From the NCBI GenBank assembly GCA_944386755.1, contig CALXCF010000007.1, positions 1,970-65,969 on the forward strand: a stretch of DNA of 64,000 bases. The letters run 5' to 3'. Positions 7,833 through 26,423 of this stretch are shown piece after piece; within the stretch, counting starts at the first letter, position 1, and each line of letters opens with the position of its first letter. The position numbers were made by a program, and so were the translations under genes. This DNA comes from an uncultured Clostridia bacterium (GTDB lineage: Bacteria; Bacillota; Clostridia; TANB77; CAG-508). The notes under the pieces were generated by a model. That model saw nothing but the letters and a program-made list of their open reading frames with translations, was not told the origin of the DNA and searched no databases.

Positions 7833-8360
7833 CTAGATTAATTGTAATATTGCCATTTCTGCTCCGTCTCCTCTTCTTGGACCAGCTTTAATGATACGTG
7901 TAAATCCACCTACATTTTTACCAGCATATTTTGGAGCAATTTCGTTAAATAGTTTTGATGGTAAGTCTATATTTTTACCTTCGCTATCTTTAACTTTGTT
8001 TATTTTTCTCATTATTTTTCTTCTTGCATTTAATCTTGATGGCATGTCTTTTTGTCTTTTTTCAGTAGTTTCTTCTTTTACTACTTTTAAATATTCTTTT
8101 CCGTTTTTGCTTTTTACTAGTTCTGTTTCTTTATTTCCTTTTGAATCTAGTTTTGCTTTTACTACTTTAACATCTACCATTTCAAAATTATCTTTTTCTT
8201 TTATTGCAAGTGAAATAATGCTATCAGCTATTGCTTTTACTTCTTTTGCTCTTGCTAATGTTGTTTCAACTTTACCATTTAATATTAAATCTGTTGTTAA
8301 AGTTTTTAACATTGCCATTCTTATGTCAGTAGTTCTTCCTAGTTTTCTATTAGTAGCCAA
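7833..8360 (-). CDS. rplQ: 50S ribosomal protein L17 (enlarged, about 175 aa)
   Basis: [20 protein letters not shown].. and the ..[25 protein letters not shown] termini. TTG 8360 lies 8 nt after AAGGAGGG. Confidence 0.9.
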
Positions 8361-8379
8361 CTTATTTCCCTCCTTCTTT

Positions 8380-8464
8380 TTGACAGGGGACACACCTTTA
8401 CCTCTTGGTCACTTCCACTCAGTTTAAGGAATGTCCCCTCCCCTCGTGAATAGGTGATTCGCCC
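8380..8464 (-). repeat. GBX-RP element copy 1 (85-nt SD-proximal structured repeat, subfamily A)
   Basis: ttgacaggggacacacctttacctcttggtcacttccactcagtttaaggaatgtcccctcccctcgtgaataggtgattcgccc. Confidence 0.9.
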
Positions 8465-8487
8465 ATTTTCTAATTACTTTACTATTT

Positions 8488-9435
8488 TTAATCTTCATCT
8501 TTTGCAAAATCCAATCCTAATGAATGTAGTTTTGCAGTTACTTCGTCAAATGATTTTTTACCTAGATTTCTAACTTTCATCATATCCGCTTCTGTTTTGT
8601 TAGTTAAATCTTCTACTGTTGCAATACCAGCTCTTTTTAAGCAGTTAAATGATCTTACAGATAATTCTAGTTCTTCTATTGACATTTCTAAAACTTTTTC
8701 TTTTTTAGATTCTTCTTTTTCAATCATAACTTGTGTATTTTTTGTAGCTTCTGATAGGTCTATAAATAATTCTAAGTGACCTGTCATTACTTTTGCAGCT
8801 AAACTTAATGCTTCATGTGCTTTTAAGCTACCATCTGTCCATACTTCAATAATCAATTTATCATAGTCTACCATTTGTCCAACTCTAGTGTTTTCAACTT
8901 GATAATTAACTTTCTTTACTGGTGTGTATATTGAATCTATTGGAAGTACAGATATGTCTTGATTTTCTTTTTTATTTTTTTCAGATGAGTTATATCCTCT
9001 TCCTCTATCAGCTGTCATTTCCATTTTTAGGCTTCCACCTTGTGAAACTGTAGCTATATGTAATTCAGGATTTAAAATTTCAACTGTTCCATCTGTTATG
9101 ATGTCACTTGCTGTAACTTCTCCCTCACCTTTGAAATCAATTCTTAATATTTTTTCTTCATTCTCGTTAAATTTTAGTCTTACATTTTTTAAGTTTACTA
9201 TGATTTCTGGTACGTCTTCTACAACATTTGGTATTGTAGAGAATTCATGTAAAACTCCATCTATTTTTACGCTTGTTATGGCACATCCTGGAAGTGATGA
9301 AAGTAATATTCTTCTAAGAGAGTTTCCTATTGTTACTCCATAACCTCTTTCTAATGGTTCGCATACAAATTTTGCATAATTGTTTGCATCATTAACTTCT
9401 AGACATTCAATATTTGGCTTTTCAAATTCTATCAT
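8488..9435 (-). CDS. rpoA: DNA-directed RNA polymerase subunit alpha
   Basis: [10 protein letters not shown].., [15 protein letters not shown]-terminal domain [13 protein letters not shown]. Confidence 0.95.
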
Positions 9436-9530
9436 CTTTACCTCCTAATATTCGAGAATATATCTCAAACTTTTTAAAACCTTTTTTGGTTCTTTAAGTA
9501 AATTGTTTAATGTTTTATATATTTGTTCTA

Positions 9531-10157
9531 TTATTTTGAGTAAAGCTCTACTATTAAATGTTCTTCGATTGGAATATCAATGTCTTCTCTAGCAGCTAAT
9601 CTGATTACTTTACCACTTAATTTTTCACTATCTCTTTCAAGCCATGCTGGAACTGGTCTTTTGCTAGATTCTTCAACATTTATTTTGATAGTAGCGTTAT
9701 CCTTTTTGTTTTCTCTTACTGTAATTACATCTCCTGCTTTTACTAAGTAAGATGGAATATCTACTTTTTTACCATTTACTTCGAATTGTGCATGGTTTAC
9801 AAATTGTCTAGCTTGTGCTCTTGATGTTCCGAAACCTAATCTATAAACAACATTATCTAATCTACTTTCTAATATTTGTAATAAGTTTTCACCTGTTACT
9901 CCTTTTTTATTAGAAGCCATTTCAAAATATTTTCTAAATTGTTTTTCTCCAACTCCATAATATGCTTTTGTTTTTTGTTTTTCTCTTAATTGTGTTCCGT
10001 ATTCAGAAAGTTTTGCTCTTTTTTGTCCGTGTTGTCCTGGTGCATAGTTTCTTCTTGAAATACTACATTTATCTGTGTAGCATCTGTCACCTTTTAAGAA
10101 CAATTTTTGCCCTTCTCTACGGCATATACGACATTGTTCGTCTTTATATCTTGCCAT
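9531..10157 (-). CDS. rpsD: 30S ribosomal protein S4
   Basis: [16 protein letters not shown].. S4 N-terminus plus an S4 RNA-binding domain. The ORF-track extension before 10157 is repeat-encoded. Confidence 0.95.
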
Positions 10158-10185
10158 TTTATATTTTACTCCTTTCTCTCTTTTT

Positions 10186-10270
10186 TTGACAAGGGACACA
10201 CCTTACCTTTTGGTCTTTCCCACTTGGGCTTAAGGAATGTCCCTTACCCTTATGAGAAAATGATTCTCCC
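10186..10270 (-). repeat. GBX-RP element copy 2
   Basis: ttgacaagggacacaccttaccttttggtctttcccacttgggcttaaggaatgtcccttacccttatgagaaaatgattctccc. Confidence 0.85.
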
Positions 10271-10297
10271 TTGTTTTATTTCGTCAATTTTTGAACT

Positions 10298-10693
10298 CTA
10301 TACCCTACGTCTTTTTGGTGGTCTACAACCATTATGTGGTATTGGTGTTACGTCTTTTATAGCACTTATTTCTAGACCTGCTGTTTGAAGTGCACGGATT
10401 GCAGCTTCTCTACCTGAACCAGGTCCTTTTACAAATACTTCTACTGTTTTTAATCCATGTTCCATAGCAGCTTTTGCAGCTGTTTCTGCTACTTGACCAG
10501 CAGCATATGGTGTGCTTTTTCTAGAACCTTTGAATCCTAATCCTCCAGCACTTCCCCATGAAATTGCATTTCCTTGTGTATCTGTAATTGTAACTATTGT
10601 ATTATTGAAACTAGAATGAATATGTGCTGCACCTTTTTCGATGTTTTTTCTATTTCTTCTAGCTACTTTTTTTGTTGTTACATTTTTAGCCAT
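10298..10693 (-). CDS. rpsK: 30S ribosomal protein S11
   Basis: [32 protein letters not shown]... ATG 10693 follows AAGGAGGAAAG. Confidence 0.95.
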
Positions 10694-24182: not shown

Positions 24183-24530
24183 TTAAGCTCCCATAAATTC
24201 GTCAATTGAATCTTTATATTTTTTAGATACTTTAACTTCTTTTCCACCTTTTGCTAGATATGTTTCTTCTGATGGATTTGTATCAATAGTAACTATTGCT
24301 TTTTTCCAGTCAGATGTTTTTCCAACATGATATCCAACTCTTTTTTTCTTTCCGCTTACTGTCATAGTGTTTACTTTTAATACTTTAACTTCAAAAAGTT
24401 TTTCAACAGCTTTTGCTATTTCAACTTTTGTTGCTTTTTTGTTTACTTTGAAAGTGTATTTACCTTCTTGTAATTGGTCATTACTTTTTTCAGTAACAAC
24501 TGGTGCTATTATTATTTCTTCTGGTAACAT
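24183..24530 (-). CDS. rplW: 50S ribosomal protein L23
   Basis: ..[41 protein letters not shown].. Confidence 0.95.
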
Positions 24531-25153
24531 TATGCGTACACCTCCTCTAATTTTTTAACAGTGTCTACTGGTAAAATTAGATTTGTATATTTTAATAAAT
24601 CAAATATGTTTATGTTATTAGCAACTATTGTTTTAACTCCTTCAATGTTTCTTGATGACATTAAAACATTTTTGTTGTTTTCTGGAAGAACTATTAATGT
24701 TTTTCCTTCAACTTTCATGTCTGCTAATGCTTTTACCATAGTTTTTGTTTTGATTTCTTTTAATTCTAATTTGTCAACAACTGTTAATTCTTTTTCTAAA
24801 ACTTTAGAACTTAATACTGATTTAATTGCAAGTCTTTTTTCTTTTTTATTAACTGTATATTTATATGAACGAGGTTTTGGTCCTAAAGCAATACCACCTT
24901 TAATCCATTGTGGAGCTCTTATTGAACCTTGTCTTGCTCTACCTGTCCCTTTTTGTCTCCATGGTTTTTTTCCACCACCAGAAACTTCTGCTCTTGTTTT
25001 TGTACTTTGTGTACCTTGTCTTTGATTAGCTAAATAGTTTACTAATACACTATGTACTATAGCTCCATTTGGTTTAATTCCAAATACACTATCTGCTAAT
25101 TCTATATCACTTACTTTTTTACCTTTTATATCTAATACATCTACTTTTGGCAT
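24530..25153 (-). CDS. rplD: 50S ribosomal protein L4
   Basis: [38 protein letters not shown].. Confidence 0.95.
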
Positions 25154-25173
25154 TCTCGTCTTCCTCCTTCCTT

Positions 25174-25809
25174 CTAGTTACTAGCCTTTACAGCTGATTT
25201 TACTTTTAAGATAGCTCCTTTTGCTCCTGGAACGCTACCTTTTACTAATATTACGTTTTTATCCATGTCTACTCTTACAACATCTAAGTTTTGTATTGTA
25301 ACTGTAACTCTTCCCATATGTCCTGGTAGTTTTTTACCTTTAAATACTCTACCTGGTGTTGATGTAGATCCCATTGAACCTGGTCTTCTGTGATACATAG
25401 AACCATGTCCCATTGGTCCTCTGTGTTGTCCATGTCTTTTGATAACACCTTGGAATCCTTTTCCTTTTGATGTTCCTTGAACATCTATTTTGTCTCCTGC
25501 TACAAAAACATCTGCTTTTACTTCATCTCCAACTTTGTAGTTTTCTACATCATCTAATTTGAATTCTCTTAAATGTTTTTTGTTAGCAAGTTTTGCTTTT
25601 GCAAAATGTCCTGCTTCTGGTTTGTTGATGTGTTTGTCTTTTACATCTCCAAATCCTAATTGTACTGCATTGTAACCATCTGTTTCTACTGTTTTTACTT
25701 GTGCTACAACACATGGTCCAGCTTCTATAACTGTTACTGGTATAACATTTCCTTTTTCATCAAATATTTGTGTCATACCAATTTTTCTTCCAATTATTCC
25801 TTTTTTCAT
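25174..25809 (-). CDS. rplC: 50S ribosomal protein L3
   Basis: [33 protein letters not shown].. Confidence 0.95.
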
Positions 25810-25896
25810 TTTTTCCTCCTAACTATTGGCTGATATTTTGAATTAGCATTTTTAAAATGTTGATATCAGCTTGGTTTTGATGATTGTTTCTAATGT

Positions 25897-25915
25897 GTGG
25901 GACGCTTTTTCCCAC
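25897..25915. repeat. small GGGACG-containing hairpin in the rpsJ-rplC spacer
   Basis: GTGGGacgctttttCCCAC, followed by TGGGATaaaaaacATCCCA. Confidence 0.5.
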
Positions 25916-25992
25916 TGGTAAATTCTTTTGGGATAAAAAACATCCCATAACGCTTCAACTAGTGATCATCTTTTTTCTAGTTGTTTACCTTT

Positions 25993-26313
25993 TTAAAGTT
26001 TGATTTCTATATCTACACCAGCTGGTAATTCTAATTTCATTAGACTGTCAACTGTTTTTTGTGTTGGGTAAAGAATATCAATAACTCTTTTATGTGTTCT
26101 CATTTCAAATTGTTCTCTTGAATCTTTGTATTTGTGTGGAGAACGCAAAATTGTTACTATTTCTTTTTGTGTTGGTAATGGAATAGGACCTGAAACCTTT
26201 GCTCCTGTTTTTTTAGCAGTATCTACTATTTTTTCAGCAGACTGATCTAAAACTACATGGTCATATGCTTTAAGTCTTATTCTTATTTTCTCACTTGTTG
26301 CTATGTTTGCCAT
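25993..26313 (-). CDS. rpsJ: 30S ribosomal protein S10
   Basis: ..[41 protein letters not shown].. Confidence 0.95.
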
Positions 26314-26340
26314 TGTAATTTTCCCTCCTTCTCTTTCTTT

Positions 26341-26423
26341 ATGACAGGGGACACACCTTTACCTTTTGGTCATTTCCACTTGGCTTAAGGAATGTCCCCT
26401 ACCCTCGTGAAATATTGATGACC
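26341..26423 (-). repeat. GBX-RP element copy 12 (subfamily A)
   Basis: atgacaggggacacacctttaccttttggtcatttccacttggcttaaggaatgtcccctaccctcgtgaaatattgatgacc. Confidence 0.85.

Follow-up and report, generated by a model that had tools for sequence, protein, structure and literature searches.

A mobile repeat family at Shine–Dalgarno-proximal sites of ribosomal-protein genes in uncultured gut Clostridia, probably of the REP/REPIN type

In bacteria, no gene clusters are more compact or better conserved than the ribosomal-protein (r-protein) operons. In a 64,000-nt stretch of DNA from an uncultured Clostridia bacterium (contig CALXCF010000007.1; this whole stretch is called the window below), the S10-spc-alpha r-protein cluster lies on the minus strand at 7.8–26.4 kb, in the order rpsJ ... 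rplQ, and many of its gene junctions are filled by copies of one structured repeat placed immediately ahead of the Shine–Dalgarno (SD) sequence. The question is how such a repeat came to occupy these junctions. The original prediction, made from the window alone, offered two explanations, i.e., a mobile element with an extreme preference for SD-proximal sites, or a domesticated RNA module. The comparisons described here indicate that the repeat family behaves as active non-autonomous mobile DNA and not as a fixed regulatory site. The explanation that we favour, as probable though well short of certain, is that the copies are non-autonomous REP/REPIN-like mobile elements that have specialised on SD-proximal sites of translation genes, and that are mobilised by a Y1 enzyme resembling the REP-associated tyrosine transposases (RAYTs), encoded 5 kb from the operon.

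The window has a G+C content of about 29% and its plus strand is C-rich along the entire length. A repeat finder returned a 12-member direct-repeat family in the S10-spc-alpha region, and the core 20-mer TTAAGGAATGTCCCCTCCCC, with up to three mismatches allowed, matched nine times against zero expected, always inside 8.4–26.4 kb. A covariance model (R1) was trained on 75 diverse copies and run over the whole window with filters off. It found 11 full copies (77–114 bits, E 1e-16 to 7e-26), a 5′ partial copy and, additionally, a degenerate copy, and no convincing match in the remaining 44 kb. Together with one deletion remnant, these make up the set present in the cluster (Table 1). Every copy has the orientation of the genes and ends 15–34 nt ahead of a start codon. 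All copies listed in the original prediction were recovered on this strand at essentially the same coordinates; the degenerate copy had been overlooked. The remnant at the rpsH junction is not significant by score alone (9.5 bits, E 3.5), but it consists of a 5′ end joined to a 3′ end, an internal-deletion layout that recurs at other junctions in relatives.

Table 1. Copies of the element and related features in the window. L-numbers are labels of related loci or contigs that were compared with the window; a slash within a sequence marks the insertion boundary. Bit scores are those of the covariance model unless stated otherwise. MAG, metagenome-assembled genome.
Feature	Position	Strand	Context	Score or description	Same junction in relatives
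REP-like flank of the RAYT-like gene (GGGGACGTTTCC ... GGGACACATCTT)	1527..1594	+		inverted partner of 2569–2627	
RAYT-like Y1 (HUH) transposase gene, candidate mobilising enzyme	1636..2418	-		260 aa	
Second, inverted REP-like flank of the RAYT-like gene	2569..2627	-		core 12-mer class common to both stem arms of the element	
Full copy	8367..8481	-	upstream of rplQ (L17)	110.5 bits	empty, 17-nt TAA/AGGAGG site, in L097, L069 and L053
Full copy	10173..10287	-	upstream of rpsD (S4)	105.2 bits	empty (23–33 nt) in L097, L049, L066 and L101
Full copy	11593..11705	-	upstream of rpmJ (L36)	95.7 bits	empty in L066, L069 and L049, ...GGACT/AGGAGGTGC
Full copy, CCCUAGGG sub-family	15792..15905	-	upstream of rplO (L15)	76.7 bits	
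Full copy, second of tandem	17460..17573	-	upstream of rplF (L6)	95.5 bits	empty (30 nt) in L002 and L060; single copy in L049
5′ partial copy, first of tandem, without 3′ stem arm	17575..17648	-		27.4 bits; nhmmer 51.7 bits, E 3e-14	5′ half identical to the single L049 copy
Internal-deletion remnant	18073..18125	-	upstream of rpsH (S8)	keeps AAGGGTGAATCA and CCCTGTCAAAAAG	full copy in the CALXCG MAG
Full copy	19479..19592	-	upstream of rplX (L24)	90.3 bits	empty (25–32 nt) in L059 and L083
Full but diverged copy	19982..20094	-	upstream of rplN (L14)	79.6 bits	empty in L060
Full copy	20374..20488	-	upstream of rpsQ (S17)	97.3 bits	filled by another sub-family in L005, L002 and L060
Full copy	21801..21916	-	upstream of rpsC (S3)	113.4 bits	empty (19 nt) in L059, L005 and L060
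Full copy	22276..22390	-	upstream of rplV (L22)	109.8 bits	empty (12 nt) in L060
Degenerate copy	25880..25989	-	rpsJ-rplC spacer	29.8 bits, E 3.7e-5 over the window	
Full copy	26328..26442	-	upstream of rpsJ (S10), 3′ end of the ~350-nt operon leader	114.3 bits	
Palindromic doublet with GGGGACGTTCC arms (REPIN-like), same core class	50131..50204			34-nt inverted repeat, 91% complementary	

Whether these junctions are filled depends on the genome. In an occupancy matrix of the S10-spc-alpha junctions across 47 species represented by metagenome-assembled genomes (MAGs), every occupiable junction shows both states, being filled in one set of genomes and empty in another. The empty ones are ordinary spacers of 9–35 nt, and filled ones are about 110 nt longer. 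The overlapping or coupled junctions rplD-rplW, rpsC-rplP, rplP-rpmC and rplO-secY are never occupied. The same polymorphism is seen at the strain level, in ten metagenome contigs that encode an RpoA identical to that of the window and have 97–99.7% nucleotide identity to it over five genes. Among these contigs, occupancy differs at seven or more junctions. Even the closest of them (L101, 99.7%) is without the rpsD copy and has an internal-deletion remnant at the rplO junction.

The copies themselves turn over quickly as well. Orthologous copies show no greater similarity to each other than non-orthologous ones do, even in genome pairs with 95–100% identity at the flanking four-fold sites, and no purifying selection on orthologous copies was detected. 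At some junctions, such as those upstream of rpsQ, rplN and rplX, close relatives carry different sub-families between unchanged flanks. Tandem pairs are common, the first member being without its 3′ arm and the breakpoints being recurrent, and copies decay by internal deletion, which removes the hairpin. Because junction occupancy is polymorphic, the sites are clean and turnover is fast, the family is best described as mobile DNA, in line with the first of the two explanations offered originally.

The sites of insertion were defined by nine pairs of empty and filled junctions. The inserted unit measures about 97–113 nt, more than the 85 nt given originally, and in all nine pairs it ends, on the right, directly at the 5′ edge of the purine-rich SD tract, as in TAA/AGGAGGGAAATAAG-TTG at the rpoA-rplQ junction. 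The SD tract on the right is the constant feature of insertion sites. The SD and the spacer downstream of the insert are gene-specific and are not altered by insertion, so that in every pair the SD and start codon of the downstream gene are retained. On the left, the boundary is A/T-rich and varies in length; in one case the element brings a new TAA stop codon for rplV and the old TAG is displaced downstream. Neither a consistent target duplication nor terminal inverted repeats were found in the nine pairs. A duplication of the SD itself as target was considered and rejected: copies of a second lineage (lineage 2) begin with an SD-like AAGGAGA tract, and this tract belongs to the element because empty sites have a single SD and copies of the window lineage have no SD at their 5′ end.

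These boundaries bear on two other ways of spreading. A classical MITE, dependent on a DDE transposase that an insertion sequence at another place in the genome encodes, would likewise be short, high in copy number and polymorphic in insertion, and would contain an inverted repeat. In the present element, however, 45 nt of element sequence lie 5′ of the inverted repeat, which is thus internal and not terminal, and target-site duplications are missing. Strict single orientation and a strand-specific hairpin with a G·T pair are moreover atypical of MITEs mobilised by DDE enzymes, and no related full-length insertion sequence was seen in the window or in the loci fetched from relatives; this origin is very improbable.

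Gene conversion or microhomology-mediated repair between junctions, with no transposase involved, is a different matter. Recombination would use the A-rich tail after the stop codon on one side and the nearly identical extended SD of r-protein genes (AGGAGGGAAAAC) on the other. Many target junctions do have 10–12 nt of SD context in common, and such a process would account for the replacement of sub-families between unchanged flanks, for the recurrent truncation of first tandem copies, for the variable 5′ boundaries and for the restriction to r-protein junctions. It does not readily place copies at unlinked loci that have other SD contexts (upstream of uppP, a fabG-like gene, an nrnA-like gene and a membrane-protein gene), and the first arrival at an empty junction of 12–20 nt needs homology on two sides, while the left side is only A-rich. 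The core that the element shares with the flanks of the RAYT-like gene, described below, would also have to be a coincidence. Recombination without a transposase, between such flanks, is therefore quite unlikely in our judgement.

The element is about 100–115 nt long and consists of an A/T-rich 5′ part with conserved UCAC motifs, an imperfect hairpin of 13–15 bp formed by two inverted GGGGACA(Y)(W)CCUU boxes, and a short A-rich tail. The long stem (GGGGACAUUCCUU/AAGGUGUGUCCCC) emerges both from the RNAalifold structure of the window copies and from pair counts over 75 and 141 distinct copies, and is 97% paired in the 141. The proposed pairing is backed by compensatory changes among the 141 copies (GC 115 / AU 22; CG 127 / UA 9; CG 130 / UA 6), and the wobble U·G that had been pointed out in the stem is kept in 131 of them. 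The inner ACC-N4-GGU hairpin is weaker, with 76–86% pairing. The sense strand folds better than the antisense strand by 3.5–8.5 kcal/mol. A pseudoknot of 4–5 bp is possible between two conserved unpaired motifs, UCAC and AGUGGA, and is pairable in 90–100% of copies; this UUCAC/GUGGA candidate has no covariation support because both sides are nearly invariant. No Rfam 15 family matches any copy, at the gathering threshold or at E up to 1.

According to the predicted folds, the RNA of the element would pair with itself and place its hairpin 8–15 nt upstream of the SD, neither masking nor exposing it, as the SD is predicted to be about as accessible with the element (0.61) as with a shuffled one (0.56). 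Sequestration of the SD by an anti-SD-like UCACCU motif was rejected on the basis of this mean accessibility; the pairing appears in some minimum free energy folds, e.g., of the rplQ copy, and the motif is not conserved across lineages. Other functions of the sequence were considered as well. Pairing of a 5′ GGUCA with a UGACC loop is inconsistent across sub-families. The copies are not terminators, as had been stated before: there is no terminator-like site at them on the minus strand, and the hairpin is followed by an A-rich tail without a U-run. Nor is there a consistent promoter-like site at the copies on the gene strand, where a single copy has a weak -35/-10 match and the region contains fewer promoter-like sites than its shuffles. 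A small ORF or leader peptide, suggested by AGGAG-N12-ATGGTC...TGA in lineage 2, was rejected, as the ATG is not conserved (ATGG, AAGG, AGGG, GAGG), 1-nt indels in the loop break the frame, and the window lineage has TGTC instead of TGAC.

In the window, the open reading frames called for several r-protein genes reach into the element by way of an in-frame GTG in GUGUCCCC, with N-termini such as 'VSPVKKKEG...' and 'VSLVKKREK...'. The calls extended in this way, all on the minus strand, are 7833–8393, 9531–10199, 11470–11619, 16914–17486 and 21131–21829.

The distribution of the family was determined with a degenerate 24-nt core pattern in 185,579 species, each represented by one genome. The pattern matched 92 stretches, of which three are chance matches in unrelated high-G+C genomes without a model hit. 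The others come from the 47 species-level MAGs mentioned above, which are labelled uncultured Clostridia, Eubacteriales, Clostridiaceae or Bacillota and originate from chicken, mouse, rabbit, zoo-animal and human guts. In 650 kb of loci fetched from relatives there are 228 covariance-model hits, and nhmmer gives 255 hits with the window included. An intact 3′ end is present in 202 hits. All but seven of these (four cut by locus ends and three aberrant variants) have an SD and a same-strand start codon within 45 nt, which leaves 195 copies. The distance between the TG(A/T)C end and the start codon is 15–34 nt in 191 of them and 25–29 nt in 117; the range of 15–28 nt given for the window has to be widened accordingly. 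A scan of viral contigs gave no match, so that no carriage by phages was seen.

The genes that follow these copies are far from random. An r-protein gene lies downstream in 185 of the 195 (95%), with 18 different r-protein genes represented, among them rplS, rplK, rplT and rpsG at loci unlinked to the S10 cluster. Three more copies precede fusA or ffh, which brings the total for translation genes to 188; the other seven lie ahead of uppP, the fabG-like gene, the nrnA-like gene and the membrane-protein gene. A metagenome scan added 22 further full copies, all ahead of r-protein genes. The single orientation relative to the genes, noticed in the window, extends across genomes, and 194 of the 195 copies lie on the G-rich (leading-sequence) strand.

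A location in 5′ untranslated regions and spacers of r-protein genes, together with a structured stem, would also suit an autoregulatory r-protein leader or riboswitch that was duplicated along the operon. Yet one and the same sequence precedes 18 r-protein genes whose products differ in RNA-binding specificity, its presence is polymorphic, Rfam holds no such family, and the candidate for a genuine S10 leader is separate and lies upstream; this idea is scarcely credible.

The second explanation offered originally, a domesticated cis-acting RNA module that is kept upstream of r-protein cistrons, fares differently with different parts of the evidence. Through its RNA hairpin and its SD-like purine tracts, such a module might serve as a processing site or as a 5′ stabiliser that protects against 5′-to-3′ decay. 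It might also be a standby site for ribosomes, an insulator that separates cistrons, or the operator for a shared trans-acting regulator by which r-protein synthesis is coordinated. The restriction to r-protein and other translation genes, also at unlinked loci and in all metagenome copies, leaves room for an effect at the RNA level, as does the more stable sense fold with its conserved U·G. The element is always in sense and at 15–34 nt from the start codon, even at rpsJ where a 350-nt leader is available; a pseudoknot is possible, and the family has persisted over 47 species. Positional conservation, on the other hand, gives no support: occupancy varies among genomes that are 97–99.7% identical, orthologous copies are conserved no better than paralogous ones, and internal deletions remove the very hairpin on which a module would depend. 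The SD is predicted to be equally accessible with the real and with the shuffled element, Rfam has no match, and the pseudoknot candidate carries no covariation signal. We regard a domesticated module as a rather unlikely explanation of the family.

If the family is mobile, an enzyme has to move it. The most likely one is probably the product of the RAYT-like gene, which lies 5.4 kb from rplQ. It matches Pfam Y1_Tnp (E 1e-14), and its best NCBIfam match is REP_Tyr_transpos, the REP-associated tyrosine transposases, with 60.1 bits versus 17.7 for IS200. The HxH motif and the tyrosine of the Y-x-H-x-N-P motif are present, with H63, H65, Y122, N126 and P127 invariant in 36 homologues. A sequence search of the protein against PDB gave no hit. 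A fold search with its AF2 model (pLDDT 91.6) returned as best match 4ER8, i.e., E. coli TnpA-REP with a REP hairpin (E 5.8e-6, TM 0.70), ahead of the IS608 and ISDra2 transposases. On sequence and modelled fold, the protein thus appears closer to REP-associated transposases than to IS200. Its locus is conserved (miaB-like / small ORF / Y1 / radA / disA) and is the same for homologues with 94% and 65% identity and in 8 further contigs, which fits the single-copy, vertically inherited nature of RAYTs (PMC5581495).

The gene is flanked by inverted REP-like repeats that are 98% identical over 56 nt (1539–1594 and 2571–2626), and equivalent flanks are found in L097 and L093. The 12-mer class of these flanks also includes both stem arms of the element, GGGGACATTCCTT and, on the opposite strand, GGGGACACACCTT. 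In the window there are 20 occurrences of this class, GGGACRYWYCYT, where 0.06 would be expected; apart from the elements, it is confined to the RAYT flanks and two related repeats. The 10-mer class GGGACRTTYC similarly occurs 15 times against 0.11 expected. The 3′ half of the rplN copy can be aligned locally to a RAYT flank beyond the core, with a score of 32 versus a shuffle maximum of 28. A natural deletion is provided by L108, a contig with an RpoA identical to that of the window, from which the RAYT ORF, together with the flank on its right, has been cleanly lost between the small ORF and radA (L108 17090–17310) and in which the left REP is degenerate (GGGAACG, GCGACATATATTC). With one tandem pair in 20 kb, L108 has the fewest copies, versus 3–7 hits in RAYT-bearing relatives. 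The loss of the gene together with a low copy number is suggestive of a link with the RAYT. At 1527–1570 of the window, the start codon of radA (ATG at 1538) abuts the flank repeat without a recognisable SD, and a longer ORF from 1568 reads through the repeat.

A route by which such an enzyme could move the element can be outlined. The enzyme would recognise the hairpin of the sense strand when this is single-stranded. The sense strand is the lagging-strand template as well as the non-template strand of a very heavily transcribed operon, which would fit the single orientation. Y1 chemistry would then cut out the element and paste it in without duplicating the target, each new copy being placed at the 5′ edge of a purine-rich SD tract, and the inserted element would be co-transcribed with the operon. 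Landing at this edge would leave the ribosome-binding site of the downstream gene and its spacing as they were, and the A/T-rich 5′ end of the element would preserve or replace the stop codon of the upstream gene. The element may be tolerated in the tightest operon of the genome because of this SD-edge placement and these 5′-end stop codons. A possible effect of the element on mRNA stability or processing would be secondary.

Several findings weigh against mobilisation by the RAYT-like enzyme, or are left unexplained by it. The protein stays below the NCBIfam equivalog cut-off (60 versus 80 bits). The boxes of the element, GGGGACATTCC and GGGGACACACC, are similar but not identical to the flank boxes GGGGACGTTTCC and GGGACACATCTT, with 1–2 positions that differ, and they are inverted in the element whereas they are direct in the RAYT flank. 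The case of low copy number without a RAYT comes from one lineage. At the insertion sites, no conserved tetra- or pentanucleotide target was found in the left flank (TTAA, AGTT, GGACT, CTAAAAA, TCAAAAA), and the short junctions rplC-rplD and rplX-rplE are never occupied despite similar SD contexts. The orientation bias cannot be assigned to a DNA or an RNA mechanism because gene and replication orientation are fully confounded; an attempt to separate the two by GC skew failed, with nearly every copy on the G-rich strand. Canonical REPs are found genome-wide, in both orientations and mostly at the 3′ ends of genes, while the present element sits in 95% of cases at the starts of r-protein genes in one orientation. 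Genome-wide extragenic dispersal, a mark of REP/REPIN elements, is thus absent from a family with 188 of 195 copies start-proximal at translation genes. The restriction to r-protein genes is left unexplained by transposition alone. Candidate reasons for it are extreme transcription, the shared extended SD, local hopping combined with selection, and a benefit at the RNA level.

The last of these reasons leads to a combined scenario, in which evolution or selection has shaped a RAYT-driven REP family to dock precisely at the SD 5′ edges of genes of the translation apparatus, and the host has co-opted it as a shared structured RNA module, rich in SD-like sequence, ahead of r-protein cistrons. This is unlikely as well. 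If it held, scattered r-protein genes would have in common one cis element through which their stability or translation could be controlled together, much as the 5′TOP motif serves eukaryotes, and a clear REP-RAYT system would be on record for Clostridia for the first time, one whose core contains GACG/CGTC.

The element is not the only repeat in this region. A second family occurs within the operon at 10780–10912 (rpsM-rpsK) and 18126–18259 (rpsN-rpsH), with a partial copy at 16878–16914; the full copies are 86% alike. It forms a long hairpin of about 120 nt that is more stable on the plus (antisense) strand (-57.6 and -62.8 versus -25.5 and -26.3 kcal/mol). It has more than 70 blastn hits in 43–44 fetched loci, and its only Rfam match is a weak, spurious one to let-7. 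The window also contains at least four more REP-like families, which are built on a GGGAC(G/A) core and occupy ordinary intergenic positions in both orientations (1548, 2617, 4553, 26769, 28306; 29456–29490; 47069–47188; 50131–50204; 53294–53380; 58337–58373; 62058–62094). One of them folds into a hairpin whose loop, TTGGGGACGTTTC, is conserved while its stems vary and covary; in another, GGGATT..GGGGACGTTCC..AATCCC units form tandem or palindromic pairs.

The cluster as a whole is unusually bloated by lineage-specific intergenic inserts. Long spacers with hairpins of their own, common to 3–9 fetched loci, are 18446–18598 (rplE-rpsN), 22673–22798 (rplB-rpsS) and 25810–25879 (the rest of rpsJ-rplC). 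Upstream of the rpsJ copy there is a perfect TTGACA-17-TATAAT promoter at 26694–26666 on the minus strand, followed downstream by a sub-threshold match to the S10-Clostridia leader at 26560–26654 on the same strand (27.3 bits versus a cut-off of 35.1); the rpsJ copy is placed between this leader match and the SD. The rpmJ-rpsM spacer (11284–11469, minus strand) measures 184–213 nt in every genome examined and, unlike other long spacers, hardly differs between the window and L097 (about 99% identity). The rpsM start is overlapped by a weak match to Alpha_RBS, and the spacer could be either a conserved leader or a region with an internal promoter. Between rplW and rplB lies an extra Lys/Glu-rich ORF of 102 aa (23857–24165, minus strand) with its own SD and no Pfam family, followed by a 224-nt spacer with a GTGTACGTGTGTACA palindrome; the CAMLUO MAG contains a homologue of this ORF. 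L17 (7833–8357, minus strand) is 174 aa long, and its Pfam domain is interrupted by an insertion of about 60 aa.

That up to a dozen r-protein junctions have been colonised without breakage, repeatedly across dozens of gut species, makes this family of wider use. Filled and empty alleles in nearly identical strains form a natural system for the study of target choice by Y1/RAYT enzymes. The same system bears on the debate whether REP-type elements are parasites or useful mRNA modules, and on the amount of intergenic structure that is tolerated in the translation of polycistronic r-protein mRNAs. Interest would grow further if the r-protein specificity reflects programmed target choice or a co-opted RNA function. 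On the practical side, gene callers are misled by the element, so that false N-terminal extensions are likely in the automated annotation of these MAGs; the element is also a likely cause of assembly breaks in them, and it can be used as a fine-scale strain marker.

Among the known repeats of bacterial operons, ERIC/IRU of enterobacteria, Correia of Neisseria and BOX/RUP of pneumococci resemble the element in being repeats of about 100–150 nt that are co-transcribed within operons and form RNA hairpins. ERIC/IRU, Correia and BOX/RUP repeats can alter mRNA stability or processing. They differ from the element in that they are of the type with terminal inverted repeats and target duplication, or of unknown mobility, and occur in both orientations without a focus on r-protein genes or SD-adjacent positions. 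Closer in placement are the Neisseria REP2 repeats and the Borrelia IR sequences, which lie directly upstream of genes in one orientation, are associated with the RBS and contain internal stem-loops (PMC3184786). REP2 comes with a promoter, an RBS and an ATG of its own and is the mark of a host-contact regulon (PMC3184786). In the present family the downstream gene keeps its own SD and start, the 5′ AAGGAGA tract of lineage 2 not being the functional SD, and the element has no consistent promoter and sits inside polycistronic r-protein operons.

With regard to mechanism, the IS200/IS605 elements and their transposase-less derivatives (IS608, ISDra2; PDB 2VJV, 2XMA) offer a Y1 transposase fold, strand-specific imperfect hairpins with mispairs, and the lack of both terminal inverted repeats and target duplication. 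Their active strand lies on the lagging-strand template, as would that of the element. The right end of IS608 has its hairpin about 8–15 nt from the 3′ boundary, as is seen in the element. Differences are that the element has no conserved tetra- or pentanucleotide target on its left, that its two ends are not similar hairpins, and that the candidate transposase is syntenic, apparently single-copy and located outside the element.

The closest parallel is formed by the REP/REPIN elements and the RAYT (TnpA-REP) transposases of E. coli, Pseudomonas and Stenotrophomonas (PMC3116915, PMC5581495, PMC3733652; PDB 4ER8). There too, short extragenic palindromic repeats are made of two inverted boxes, a Y1/HUH gene at a conserved locus is flanked by inverted copies of a related repeat, and several related repeat families with one core coexist in the same genome. 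Likewise in common are the absence of target duplication and the combination of vertical persistence across species with rapid turnover within a lineage. Apart from the placement, orientation and box differences weighed above, the present system differs in its host, a clade of uncultured Clostridia, and in the greater length of the element, with its extra conserved 5′ module. A survey of REPs does not mention Firmicutes or Clostridia in its main text, and describes CGTC-tagged REPs without a dedicated transposase (PMC3733652). According to a RAYT survey, Group 1 RAYTs also occur in Clostridia, and this group is tied only to low-frequency flanking 16-mers. Literature searches gave no description of SD-proximal repeats in r-protein operons, nor of REP-RAYT systems in Clostridia. 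What is new here is best described as a REP/REPIN-like family in uncultured gut Clostridia that is SD-proximal at r-protein cistrons, dynamic at the strain level and probably driven by a RAYT.

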